From Octopus vulgaris (taxonomy: Eukaryota): 64,000 nt of DNA. The DNA is taken from NCBI GenBank assembly GCA_951406725.2, contig OX597825.1, positions 52,080,001 to 52,144,000 of the forward strand, given 5' to 3'. This document shows positions 32,394 through 55,590 of this stretch, one piece after another. Both the position numbers and the translations under genes were made by a program. Position 1 is the stretch's first letter; each line of letters begins with the position of its first letter. Under the pieces are notes generated by a model that saw nothing but the letters and a program-made list of their open reading frames with translations, ran no database searches and was not told where the DNA came from.

Positions 32394-32800
32394 AATTAAG
32401 AAATGGAGTTAAACGCAGGTGTTATTCAAATCTTTATACTTCCAACATATGTTTTGAAGAAAACATTGGTATTATTCCTGAGGGAATAAAATGATGTAAA
32501 ACAATGTAAACATCTCGTCAGGGAGAGAAAGAGAAGCAAAACACACTAATAAGGTGTTTTAACCGAATGTGATTACCGAGTATATGATGAAGGGAACACT
32601 GGTATTCCCTTCATCATATACTTTGTAATCACATTCAGTTAAAACACCTTATTAGTGTGTTTTGCTTCTCTTTCATTCCCTGACGAAATGTTTACATTGT
32701 TTTACATCATTTTATTCCCTCAGGAATAATACCAATGTCTTTTTCAAAACATATGTTGGAAGTATAAAGATTTGAATAACACCTGGGTTAACTCCATTTC

Positions 32801-32806: not shown

Positions 32807-32861
<55 letters not shown>

Positions 32862-32953
32862 TAATCCAAACAAGAAAACAAAAACAAAAGAAAACAACAA
32901 CGCAAGAACGTGGAACAAATAAAGTATTATTGGACACTCAGGAAAGAAGGCGG

Positions 32954-32988
32954 GTTTGACTTTTCGAGCGGAGCTCTTCGTCAGAAAC
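32954..32988 (-). ncRNA. Minimal type-I hammerhead ribozyme within a pLTR-like fragment (~32865-33060)
   Basis: GUUU CUGACGA A GAGC-ucc-GCUC GAAA A GUC AAAC; one change from the GAAACGUC minimal PLE form. Confidence 0.75.
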
Positions 32989-33124
32989 ATAGGAGAAGGA
33001 AAGATCCTGAGAAGGGAAGACAGGGGAAAAAAAATCGCTAGTGATACAGACGAGGTCACATATATATATATACCCACACTACCAGAGATACCAGGCATTG
33101 TTTGGGATTAAAATGGCATCGTTT

Positions 33125-33551: not shown

Positions 33552-33624
33552 AGTCAGCTATGAGACTCGAACTCACATCCCTGTGATTACATGTCAAGTG
33601 CTTTACCTTTCAGCTAAACTGTCC
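33552..33624 (-). pseudogene. tRNA-derived sequence (UGU in the anticodon-like loop, Thr-like) inside a repeat element
   Basis: Minus strand GGACAGTTTAGCTGAAAGGTAAAGCACTTGACATGTAATCACAGGGATGTGAGTTCGAGTCTCAT... has an A box, a B box (GTTCGAGTC) and a downstream T5. The cloverleaf is imperfect. Confidence 0.6.
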
Positions 33625-33905
33625 AGTAACGAGTTGTTCTGCAATTTTTAGATTTATAAATCTAACTCTATAAGATGCTAATGTTAAATTCAGCTTACAA
33701 TGAATGTAAACAAAGTTTGCTTTAGAAACATTGAGATGTATTGAAAGATACAGAAATAATTTATTCTCGAGCGCATGATAATGCTAATACAATAATTTAT
33801 GCTATTGTATTAGCATTAGCATGTGTTTGAGAATAAATTATTTCTGTATCTTTCAATATATCTCAATGCTTCTAAAGTAAAATTTGTTTGTTTACTTTCA
33901 TCAGA

Positions 33906-33935
<30 letters not shown>

Positions 33936-33937
<2 letters not shown>

Positions 33938-34497
33938 ATAGTTATCGCCATACTAATATGGCATTCTTATAAAAATAAGAATAAAGCTGTCCGCTTATTA
34001 GCTCCATGAGGCCATCGCCTTAAGTTAGCTATTTGATACACAAACTGTATCCATATAACCTTCGAACAAGGGAGGTCTGTCGCTCCACACTACTTGACCG
34101 GCAGCTACAGACGCGTTTCGGGGTATTGCCCCTTTTCAATGCAGCGTAGCCAGACCAGTAGGTGTCGCTTCCGACAATCTCTGTTCGAAGGTTTTATTTA
34201 CCTAGCTTCGGTGGAATACATCCACTTGTTTTCAATAATAGAAATATTAAAATTACTAAGTCTGTAGCTGCCGGTCAAGTAGTGTGGAGCGACTGACCTC
34301 CCTTGTTCGAAGGTTATATGGATACAGTTTGTGTATCAAATAGCTAACTTAAGGTGATGGCCTCATGGAGCTAATAAGCGGACAGCTTTATTTTTATTTT
34401 TATAAGAATGCCATATTAGTATGGCGATAACTATTATTTTCCGGGAACGCTGCCGTTGTTCTCTTTTAGAGAGACTTAGTAATTTTAATATTTCTAT

Positions 34498-34500
<3 letters not shown>
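33936..34500. mobile_element. Young retrozyme/pLTR-like element in (TA)n: ~363-nt monomer present as two inverted, circularly permuted pieces
   Basis: 33936-34112 is inverted against 34260-34438, and 34235-34262 is inverted against 34473-34500. Hammerhead at 34104-34145. Confidence 0.85.
34104..34145 (-). ncRNA. Type-I hammerhead ribozyme (variant core UUGAAAA)
   Basis: GCUGCA UUGAAAA GGGG-caaua-CCCC GAAA CGCG UC UGUAGC. Stems I and II and the palindromic stem III are intact. Confidence 0.7.
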
Positions 34501-34536
<36 letters not shown>

Positions 34537-34587
34537 GTATATATATATATGTATATATATATGTATGTATGTATGTATATATGTGTG

Positions 34588-34618
<31 letters not shown>

Positions 34619-34681
34619 GTATGCATGTATGTATATATATATATATGTATGTATGTATGTATGTGTATATATATATGTATG

Positions 34682-34721
<40 letters not shown>

Positions 34722-34736
34722 TATATTATATTTTTG

Positions 34737-34767
<31 letters not shown>

Positions 34768-35145
34768 GTATGTATATATATATATATATGTATATATATA
34801 TGTATGTATGTATGTATGTATATATATATGTATGCATGTATGTGTATATATATATGTAGTGACAACCTGGCCACTGGTGGTGGTGTAACACACCATACTA
34901 ATCATATCTGTCAGGCATGTGGAAGAGAGTGTAATTTGGCAGGAGTATTTGCGACATGCAAAGGTAAATGAGGCCCAGTTACAACTACAGCCGGCTATTA
35001 CAGGTATAGGTTTTGATTTCCAATCCTGCATAAGACATTGTAGATCTTTAGCTGGGATAAAAGTCACATTCGATTACAGCACCAGTAACAATTAAGCTTC
35101 ATGCAATGGCCATACTCGATAATGAGGGGGCAGCCATAATGTATG

Positions 35146-47659: not shown

Positions 47660-48872
47660 CAGGGTGTGATGGGTAAATTGCCGCCATTTTATATTTTTTA
47701 TTTTGAAATGGCACATTGTCCGTTTTTAATTTTGTTGACTACAAGTAAAACTGCACCATGACACAATTCACATTGCTGGAAATTTTGAAATGACATGCTG
47801 TACTACTTAACATTCGTACTAGAAGTTCCAATATGAACATTTCAGAGTGTTTGGGTGTCAATCTGATGACAGTGCAGAGGATTCAAAAAGTGTTGGATCA
47901 GTCTAATGGTGATTACAAAGGTATGGCAGCTTGGAAAGCTCACTCTTATCGTTCTGATAAGAAAAGAACTCCTGAATTTGTAGGTGAGATCCAGGCCATG
48001 ATTGACAACAATCCTTCCAAGTCAATCAGGTCCATCGCCAGGGACATGAGAGTGTCTGAGTTTCTTATCAAGCAGGTAGTGCATGAAGACATTTGGTATT
48101 CCTCATACAAGGTGAGAAAGGGGCAATTTTTATCCCAAGCCATCAAGGACAACAGGAAAGACCATGCTACAAAGCTTTTGAACAAACTCAAGCATCTCCT
48201 CCAACTGAACATGCTTCGCTTTTTCTCAGACGAGAAAAATTTCTGCCAGGATAAGATGGGGAACATACAGAACAATTGTTGGATTGCTGTGTCCCCAAAA
48301 CATGTACTGAGAGTGATAGAAATCAAACATCCACTCCAGTCAACAATTGACGTTATGCCTCCATTCATCTTCCCACAGTCTCACAAGAAGGTCTACATCA
48401 AGTCCCTGGAGGAGGTAGTGCTGCCCTGTATCAAGAGGGTGGCTACTGAAAAACCCTATGTCTAGAAACAGGACTCTGCACCATGCCACACAAGCATGAG
48501 AGTTATGGCTTTCAGACAATTTCTGTGGCCACATCAGCCCTAACATCTGGCCACCTAACTCCACAGAATGCAACCCTGTTGATTATTATGAGTGGGGTAC
48601 AGGTGAGTTAGAGACCCACAAAACTCTTTGTAACACCAAAGATAAACTGAAGGCAAGGATTATGGCAGCATTCACAAATTTAAACAAGGCATCTGTCCAG
48701 AAGAGTTGCAAGAGTTTCTGAAGTTGTCTGGAGGCTGTTATTGAATAAATTTGCTCTTTAGGATTTCGAGATATTTTTTATGTAATTTTGGTAAATATAT
48801 CTGTTAAAATGAGATGTCAGTGTTATTTTCATTTTTGTGTAATTTAGGTAACAATTTATTCACTGCACTCTG
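47660..48872 (+). mobile_element. Tc1/mariner-superfamily DNA transposon (maT/DD37D-like), near full length, defective
   Basis: Imperfect TIRs CAGGGTGTGATGGGTAAATTG / CAATTTATTCACTGCACTCTG. Motifs FFSDEKNF, QDSAPCH and WPPNSTECNPVDY. Confidence 0.9.
47833..48465 (+). pseudogene. Transposase ORF remnant (HTH plus first catalytic D), truncated by a stop before QDSAPCH
   Basis: 210-aa ORF with SIRSIARDMRVSE (HTH) and FSDEKNF. Confidence 0.85.
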
Positions 48873-53582: not shown

Positions 53583-55590
53583 CAGTAGATCCCACTTGAT
53601 AAATCCACCTACTTAATGTATCCAAAATGGGTTGGAATGGAATATTTACATAAAATCTCTCTTTTAATGAAGCCAAACAATTGCCTGATAAATTTAATTG
53701 TTGCTGTTTCTCCCTAAAGTGACAACAAGTGGCAGCAAATGAATGAAGTGTTTTTTTTTTGTTTTTTTTTAAATTTTTAAATACCAGTGGGTAGGTGAAA
53801 AAACATGTCATTCTTCATTCATACAGAGAGACAGACACACACACAAGTTGTTCCAAATGTTCAAAATGAAAAGAGAGAGGCAGGACAAATCCATGGCAGA
53901 AAAGATTCAATTATTAGAACATTACAAAGTTCTTGGGGAAAACAACTCAGCAGGAAGCAGCATAGAGTTTGGGAATTTCAAGAGGTCTGGTCCGAATTTG
54001 CTAAATGATGAGATGACCTTTATGCCAAAGGGAAAGCTGTTCATCAAACTCTCTATGATTGGTTTGAATTTATTCACACAAGAAACGTCCCCATCAATGG
54101 CCTAATCCTAATGCACAAAACCAACACCATTGCTCAACCTCCTGGACACAATTTTAAGGCATCTGGAGGTTGGTTTTACCATTGACAAAAAAGACATAGA
54201 ATCTCTTTTAAGGTTCTAAAAGGTAAGCCTAATAGTTCACTAGCTTACATTTTTCTCTTTAGAGAACACAAACTAAGCATTTAATATTTTGCCAGTGATG
54301 CAGCTGAAGCTGATGTGGATGGAGCCCATCAATATCATGAGACAACCATGCAGCTTCTGTTGAAATCGTATCAGCACAGGACATCTACAACACCATTGAA
54401 ACTGGGATCTACTTATGTGCATTACCAGGAAATACATATGTTAGTGTGAGTTGCAAGAAAACTGTGGGGGACTTAAAGATGGCAAAGGGCCATGTGAATT
54501 TGATGGTGGCCTGCAACATGAATAGAGACAAAGATCTGCTCTTAATTGGAAAGGCTGGTTCACCAAAATGTTTCAAAAAATGCTTCTGATTCAGTACGAC
54601 TTTTCAACCAATGACAGAAAAAAACCTATGGAAGATGGCTCAGATCTTGGGATCATTGCTTGCTGGAATCTAGAAGGCAAGTGGTGGTCCTTCTTAATAA
54701 TTGCTTTTCTCTTGTAGTTATCGATGATCTCAAGAATGTCACTTTAAAATTTCTTCCTCCCAAAACAACGTCAGTGCTGCAGCCCTGTGACATGGGGATA
54801 ACCAATGCCATGAAAGACTACTTCAGACATAAAATGTGTGAGATCACCAATGTTATGGAAGACACTGAACGTGACATTTTTGCCCATGAAGTTGCAAAGC
54901 AGATCACCATTTTGGATGCCATATACATGTTGAGCATAACTTGAAAGAAGGGCTCTAGCCAGACAATCAAATATTGTTGGACCAAAGCTAGTTTTGTTTC
55001 GGCCAAAGAATCAAATGAAACCATAGATGTCAACAGAGATTTGATCCTGCCTTCGCTGCCAACTGAATTGACCAAAAGGCAATTCAAGAACTGGTTGTCC
55101 ATAGATGATGGTGCTGTTGTTGCTCCAGAGATCATCACTGAAGAAGAAAAATTGGACGAGATCATTTGTGACATTCAGCAATCTGAGAAGAAAATGAGAG
55201 GAGATGAAGATGGCAACTCTGACGTTGATGTTGATGAAAGAATTCTGAAGCCTTCAACACCAGCTGAAATGAGACACTCTCTCACTCGATTAGGAAATGG
55301 TCTTGAAAGTTTTGATTTCAATGATATGAATCCTTTTATAACTATTAAGGAAAAAAAATCAATGCAGAGTTGCAAACAAAGCATCCAGCAAAGCAAACAA
55401 CACTTGACAAATTTTTCATTCAGCGACATCGTTTATAATGTTTTTATTAGTGTATTCGCACATGTATGTATTCTAATAAATACATATGTTTAATCAATCG
55501 GTACATTTTGTTCCCTTGGTTTATAAATCCCTCGTTTAATAAATCCAAATTAGGTGATCCCAAGATGGATTTATAAAGTGGGGTCTACTA
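53583..55590 (+). mobile_element. pogo/Tigger-family DNA transposon, near full length, defective
   Basis: TIRs CAGTAGATCCCACTTGATAAATCC / GGATTTATAAAGTGGGGTCTACTA with TA flanks. FKASGGWF (CENP-B HTH), DIYNTIETG, FLPPKTTSVLQPCDMGI (DDE_1) and an acidic C-terminus. Confidence 0.9.

Follow-up and report, generated by a model that had tools for sequence, protein, structure and literature searches.

A two-armed insertion in the Octopus vulgaris genome belongs to a young hammerhead repeat family, probably a non-LTR retrozyme mobilized by a Penelope-like protein

Introduction

In a 64,000-nucleotide (nt) stretch of the Octopus vulgaris genome (contig OX597825.1; the whole stretch is called the window below), two copies of a hammerhead-bearing sequence meet head to head inside a TA microsatellite. 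How did this arrangement arise, and does the point at which the copies meet record a ribozyme cut? A preliminary description proposed that a reverse transcriptase (RT) copied a self-cleaved RNA up to its cut 5' end and then switched template, so that the inversion would start at the cleavage site. Two published systems are relevant. Animal retrozymes yield circular RNAs, and their rolling reverse transcription by Penelope-like elements has been proposed (Cervera and de la Pena 2020, PMC7229834); co-occurrence of the two kinds of element and a repeat phylogeny were added by Li et al. (2026, 10.64898/2026.07.22.740005). Penelope-like elements themselves leave inverted truncated copies with a tail at one end (Craig et al. 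2021, 10.1101/2021.04.23.441226; Arkhipova et al. 2013, PMC3846280).

Results

Anatomy of the locus

Unit coordinates were taken from a natural dimer (L030:1501-1863), in which the predicted cut follows position 153. The features of the locus, read from the sequence and by sequence mapping, are as follows.

33913..33934, left (TA)n target tract
33935..34263, minus strand, arm A, 329 nt, unit position 363 followed by 1-328
34104..34145, minus strand, type I hammerhead motif, predicted cut between 34110 and 34109
34260..34263, GTCT, 4-nt microhomology common to both arms at the head-to-head joint
34260..34502, plus strand, arm B, 243 nt, unit 151-393
34438..34502, plus strand, tail of 65 nt from end A to end B, on one side only
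34503..34857, right (TA)n / (TATG)n microsatellite

The outer end of arm A, ...GATAACTATTAT, adjoins the left (TA)n tract. That of arm B, ...TTTCTATTAT, lies 65 nt beyond end A and adjoins the right tract. Much of the preliminary description held at this level: the hammerhead coordinates and the predicted cut were right, the segment 34473-34500 does match 34235-34262 in inverted orientation, and TA microsatellites flank the insertion on both sides. Its claim that the plus copy starts at the cut through a GTC microhomology needs correction. The shared bases are GTCT, and because the arms overlap by these 4 nt, the plus arm may start anywhere within unit 151-155. Similarly, the locus is young, as had been claimed, but the arms are not quite as uniform as described: mismatches stand at 3 of the 178 positions common to both, one of them a CpG transition, and one of six CpGs has decayed.

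Several other features stand near the insertion or elsewhere in the window. Just left of a (TA)n tract is a palindrome with 188-bp arms, 95% complementary and 2 nt apart (32412-32789), possibly another fold-back or two-armed insertion. A repeat of about 200 nt between TA tracts (32858-33058) starts with GTTAATCCAAACAAG and recurs in the flanks of L138 and L167. On the minus strand at 33552-33623, a tRNA-like match scored 40.1 bits, above the Rfam gathering score, and probably represents a SINE head; further on, at 33757-33840, lies a short palindrome. Two open frames at 47794-48465 (223 amino acids [aa]) and 54945-55493 (182 aa) resemble transposase fragments.

The locus is one copy of a young, abundant, noncoding repeat family

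In a DNA search of the 2.8-Gb genome (40 of 1,371 candidates scored), copies of the unit were 96-100% identical, several of them in tandem with a period of 363. The exact ribozyme 27-mer across the predicted cut occurred 934 times in the genome, often with a period of 362. Exact junctions of the right end with (AT)n numbered 1,243 and those of the other outer end 327, and reversed-pattern controls for the 27-mer and for the end junctions gave 0 matches. The repeat and the ribozyme motif thus exceed chance. The right outer end is also conserved in older subfamilies that are 79-90% identical.

The closed, ORF-less unit of about 363 nt, which had been pieced together from the two arms in the preliminary description, stands elsewhere in the genome as true head-to-tail arrays with a period of 362-363, including arrays of 4-6 units. 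Its GC content is 0.413 (41%). The longest stop-free stretch of the natural dimer is 54 aa in sense and 65 aa in antisense orientation; stops occur in all frames, and rolling-circle translation was therefore rejected. No LTR layout was seen in the mapped loci. Target-site duplications of non-LTR retrozymes, when present, exceed 4 bp. Here a few single-arm loci (L006, L017) hint at long duplications and most give no such hint, but the targets are microsatellites, in which duplications could not be read. The window locus is thus one copy, ordinary within its family, of a young, abundant, noncoding 362-363-nt repeat.

Contigs with the unit were found in 14 runs presumed to be RNA, 4 of which were inspected; such contigs cannot reveal cuts, strand or circles. 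Among runs with other organism codes, run X18 contained a 392-letter contig at depth 13 that covered the whole unit and wrapped to its start; a repeat of such high copy number might have been carried over at a low level. In runs with several organism codes, 57-86% of the unit's words were present.

The hammerhead motif is conserved across subfamilies

Read by hand, the motif has a 6-bp stem I (GCUGCA/UGUAGC), a 4-bp stem II (GGGG/CCCC), the core UUGAAAA plus GAAA and a palindromic helix III (ACGCGU), with cleavage predicted after GUC. The core has U3-A8 in place of C3-G8, as has been reported for Penelope-associated hammerheads (Cervera and de la Pena 2014, PMC4209133). A palindromic helix III as small as this suggests that the motif acts as a dimer, as predicted for such motifs in the same paper.

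We aligned 18 of 50 hammerhead variants, collected with a motif expression that presupposes parts of the fold. In this alignment 98% of cells were paired. The helix III palindrome changes from ACGCGU to ACAUGU in 5 of the 18 variants, the pair at the base of stem II is A-U instead of G-C in 3, and a stem I pair occurs as G-U, A-U or G-C; since the sequences are related, these counts do not amount to a probability. Subfamilies that differ by about 15-20% retain both the stems and the palindrome. The hammerhead region alone gave a fold z of -1.3 to -2.4. Folded as a circle, the whole unit reached -122.0 kcal/mol versus -83.1 +/- 6.1 kcal/mol for shuffled sequences, 0 of 100 of which folded as well. 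Rfam scans returned no hammerhead match.

Any cleavage may be inefficient. Hammerheads with U3-A8 and a minimal helix III are sometimes weak, and in vitro no cleavage was obtained for 8 of 9 Xenopus retrozyme dimers (Li et al. 2026, 10.64898/2026.07.22.740005). Further hammerhead-like motifs with the UUGAAAA core and an ACCGGU palindrome, seen as two hits of one sequence in the end-B sample described below (locus L212) and once at L181:7008, are likely to represent further families.

Joints do not mark the predicted cut

Three samples of loci were used. The first comprised 60 loci found by similarity or by the ribozyme pattern, the second 90 of the first 100 listed end-A junctions, and the third 40 of the first 100 listed end-B junctions, picked from those unmatched to the end-A list. 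After removal of 21 redundant loci and the window, 168 loci with 125 head-to-head pairs remained.

If reverse transcription had run to a cut 5' end before switching template, joints should fall at the cut. The window copy agrees with this, its joint interval 151-155 including the first base after the cut, as happens by chance in about 1.9% of insertions. The family does not. The joint interval included unit 154 in 2 of the 125 other pairs (2.3 expected by chance), and arms starting at unit 150-157 numbered 6 in the 168 loci versus 4.7 expected from coverage. In the end-A sample, which is unbiased by the ribozyme region, cut-site joints were found in 3 of 146 versus 2.7-3.2 expected. Joints pile up elsewhere instead, at unit 160-172 (19 versus 8.0 expected) and 188-200 (29 versus 9.2), intervals that were chosen post hoc; the clustering nevertheless held up in a scan-corrected test on the end-A sample (0 of 500). 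These clusters lie on the 3' side of long predicted stems, at which the RT might stall. Moreover, arm A of the window itself reads intact through the predicted cut site. Recombinant haplotypes were few, insufficient for mapping a break at the cut site. The breakpoint comparison that the preliminary description had itself named as its test thus goes against it, the breakpoints of other copies being unrelated to the GUC site. The position of this copy's joint at the cut is best put down to chance, joints at the cut being no commoner than chance among other copies, and the cut-end explanation of the inversion is highly improbable.

Insertions pair two fixed outer ends

Unlike the scattered joints, the outer ends of the arms were fixed. 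They lie at unit 328 (A) or 393 (B), and both read ...CTATTAT followed by (AT)n. Among the 125 head-to-head pairs, 107 were A+B, 1 was A+A and 1 was B+B, and 16 had a broken or clipped end. When only loci not picked by an end were counted, the window included, 30 of 34 pairs were A+B, with no A+A and no B+B. Microhomology of at least 3 nt was present at 34 of 73 joints, versus 5.5% for random pairs, and extra bases separated the arms at 11 of 73. Arms longer than one unit, reading intact through the cut site, made up 52 of 146, and in 15 of 92 pairs both arms exceeded one unit. The family thus has the Penelope-type layout of tandem and inverted 5'-truncated arms, a tail at one end and an AT-rich or microsatellite target, and its assignment in the preliminary description to the retrozyme/Penelope kind is borne out.

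A single cDNA that folds back at a microhomology and copies itself, the self-priming route proposed in PMC3846280, could also give inverted arms. The joints do carry microhomology and cluster at self-complementary parts of the unit, and in 50 of 92 A+B pairs one arm is nested in the other, in one direction or the other. A fold-back copy must, however, lie within its template arm, so the remaining 42 pairs, nested in neither direction and including that of the window, are not makeable in this way; shuffled arm lengths gave 36.0 +/- 4.0 such pairs. Fold-back is therefore very unlikely as the origin of the layout. Given a fixed outer end for each arm and the same 42 non-nested pairs, a single RT with a template switch also fits poorly.

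A close parallel is the Penelope-like protein of the anole, which nicks both strands of AT-rich DNA and in vitro begins reverse transcription from two internal sites, the distance between them being the length of the genomic tail (Frangieh et al. 2024, PMC11167929). That study saw no difference between the strands in the RT start site.

Each insertion carries one haplotype

In the young family, six sites define two main haplotypes (37 and 32 loci). The arms of the same insertion differed in 2 of 240 diagnostic comparisons (86 loci) versus 48.6% between loci; such likeness could also come from gene conversion or assembly polishing. With 8 older or compound loci left out, locus-private variants numbered 12 common to all copies at a locus, 118 in one copy and 5 in some copies; the preponderance of single-copy variants counts against a common template. 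Rare whole haplotypes were repeated in every unit and in both arms. The 12 all-copy variants and the repeated rare haplotypes indicate a one-unit bottleneck somewhere in the ancestry of an insertion.

These haplotype data fit a circle and a homogeneous linear multimer alike. A Penelope protein dimer might roll round a single ribozyme-made 363-nt RNA circle for up to several laps, the two nicked target strands priming at obligatory, different sites 65 nt apart, both RTs copying that circle and the products then annealing; we consider this quite possible, though somewhat short of an even chance. The same two priming events could instead take place on the uncut linear transcript of a homogeneous array, with no circle and with the ribozyme not involved. 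Uncut RNA is the main template of the anole element, for which ribozyme cleavage is unneeded for insertion (PMC11167929), and the arrays of 4-6 units could be the sources. Five sites in 4 of 56 multi-copy insertions were common to both arms and absent from some units, as expected from unlike units, and 3 of the five occupied matching registers in the two arms; such sites would not arise from a pure monomer circle. The linear template must, however, accommodate the one-unit bottleneck, as well as the upkeep of hammerhead stems and palindrome between diverged subfamilies. We regard it as possible, but well below an even chance.

An intact Penelope-like family is a candidate partner

A search for GIY-YIG sequences (150 of 6,136 candidates scored) revealed many open frames of 781 aa. 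They belong to a young intact Penelope-like family, exemplified by L175:244-5490 (G000:C6:133343000-133351000) and also present in L171-L188, with many copies 97-99.7% alike. The element of 4.7 kb contains a 479-aa ORF1, overlapped by a 781-aa ORF that encodes RT and C-terminal GIY-YIG domains, the RT match lying just below the Pfam cut-off. The motif C-x4-C-x2-C precedes the nuclease, which fits the Neptune/Nematis type (Craig et al. 2021, 10.1101/2021.04.23.441226). The terminal repeat (pLTR) of this coding family bears a hammerhead with UUGAUAA and GAAACAUGU, the same as in an older retrozyme subfamily. It has two ends 40 nt apart that run into (TA)n, one of them, which reads CCTATTAT, in CTATTAT, and all 3 inverted copies seen (L177, L179, L188) pair the two kinds of end. 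Other Penelope-like families exist in the genome.

The unit could then be simply a solo pLTR of such a coding element. Its hammerhead type and insertion layout are those of pLTRs, which retrozymes also resemble in Xenopus (10.64898/2026.07.22.740005), and the scored share of the GIY-YIG candidates leaves this explanation some room. Against it, the unit returns to itself past end B and does not run into an ORF. It also failed to align with the pLTR of the intact family (282 and 208 of 300 shuffles scored equally well), and among the mapped loci none was flanked by an RT plus GIY-YIG ORF. In three deep runs, the share of contigs continuing into unlike sequence was 0, as judged by the best-supported loose ends. 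The absence of an alignment, of a flanking ORF and of a shared run-on in the loci and runs covered makes the unit its own element and the coding family a partner candidate only, in keeping with the preliminary view that the unit is not merely the terminal repeat of a coding Penelope. We regard the solo-pLTR explanation as very improbable.

Some apparent connections between the unit and other elements were rejected. Penelope fragments near L006, L101, L127, L169, L212 and L228 are not joined to the unit in the pLTR position, and a loose end in contigs of two runs, considered as a partner element, was one genomic locus. The chimera at L173 (retrozyme arm, 155-nt spacer and truncated coding element) was rejected as a single insertion: the spacer belongs to a third and older repeat, being its natural 3' end (89-94% identical to its kin), so nested insertions explain the locus. 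This third repeat (L173:2441-2600; L193-L201; 1,334 candidates, 88-94% alike) is of high copy number and likewise ends in (TA)n. It shows inverted arms and seems to have two ends, separated by about 85-90 nt. A hammerhead motif scan of nine of its loci found none.

Discussion

We conclude, with a probability of roughly 0.8, that the locus is one insertion of a young hammerhead family, which is likely to be a non-LTR retrozyme and to be mobilized in trans by a Penelope-like RT-GIY-YIG protein. Mobilization would begin with transcription of an array of at least two units. Paired by way of the palindromic helix III, the hammerheads might release a monomer, and this would probably be ligated to a circle. 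The Penelope-like protein would nick both strands of a (TA)n tract and start one cDNA from each of the sites A (328) and B (393), both on one template lineage. The cDNAs would extend back over varying lengths, many of them beyond a single unit, and the two cDNA ends would anneal at 2-7 complementary bases and be repaired into the head-to-head inversion. The ends, joints and haplotypes are observed, whereas the roles of the partner enzyme, of cleavage and of the circle in this life cycle are those we infer. The window copy contains a single hammerhead and, in the absence of a cut in trans, should be a dead end.

By class, the unit is probably a new family of animal non-LTR retrozyme, a known kind of element. 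Literature searches found nothing on the family and no account of two fixed paired ends in a retrozyme; Repbase, Dfam, supplements and subscription journals lay outside their scope, so the family may already be catalogued. As in the metazoan non-LTR retrozymes of PMC7229834 and 10.64898/2026.07.22.740005, a noncoding tandem repeat in the range of 150-450 bp, which bears a type I hammerhead and has a GC content below 50% and a stable predicted circle, reaches thousand-fold copy number and co-occurs with Penelope-like elements. Its length of 362-363 nt is close to the 350-390 bp of mussel retrozyme units. Unlike these elements, the unit is a new sequence family with a U3-A8 core, and its cleavage and circles are predicted. 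Most of its copies are also short, dispersed insertions that have an inverted arm and two fixed ends, a layout not described for retrozymes in the sections consulted.

Endonuclease-positive Penelope insertions (10.1101/2021.04.23.441226; PMC3846280; PMC11167929) have the following features in common with the family: partial tandems, an inverted 5'-truncated copy, a one-end tail, microsatellite targets, two RT start sites and a hammerhead near the end. The unit differs from them in having no ORF and a tail of 65 nt, not 30-40 nt, and in that the whole repeat unit is the element. With the minimal Penelope hammerheads (PMC4209133) it shares the U3-A8 covariation, the small palindromic helix III and the predicted dimeric activity. 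The minimal form, however, has a long helix II and a short helix I, whereas the helices of the unit are of canonical size, 6 bp (helix I) and 4 bp (helix II), and are accompanied by a long closing stem.

The movement of animal retrozymes is attributed to Penelope-like elements, and the published support, as far as the cited accounts present it, consists of shared hammerheads, co-occurrence and repeat phylogeny. The family described here adds a mechanical footprint, with two fixed start sites, strict one-of-each pairing and one haplotype per insertion, and the same genome contains an intact candidate enzyme with the same footprint. Trans-mobilization and the rolling-circle steps thereby become testable with one small RNA and a 781-aa protein. 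If the circle-rolling reading is true, the insertions would prove at the sequence level a retrozyme life cycle that has so far been proposed, and the pairing of one end of each kind would be a strand asymmetry not seen in the anole system in vitro.
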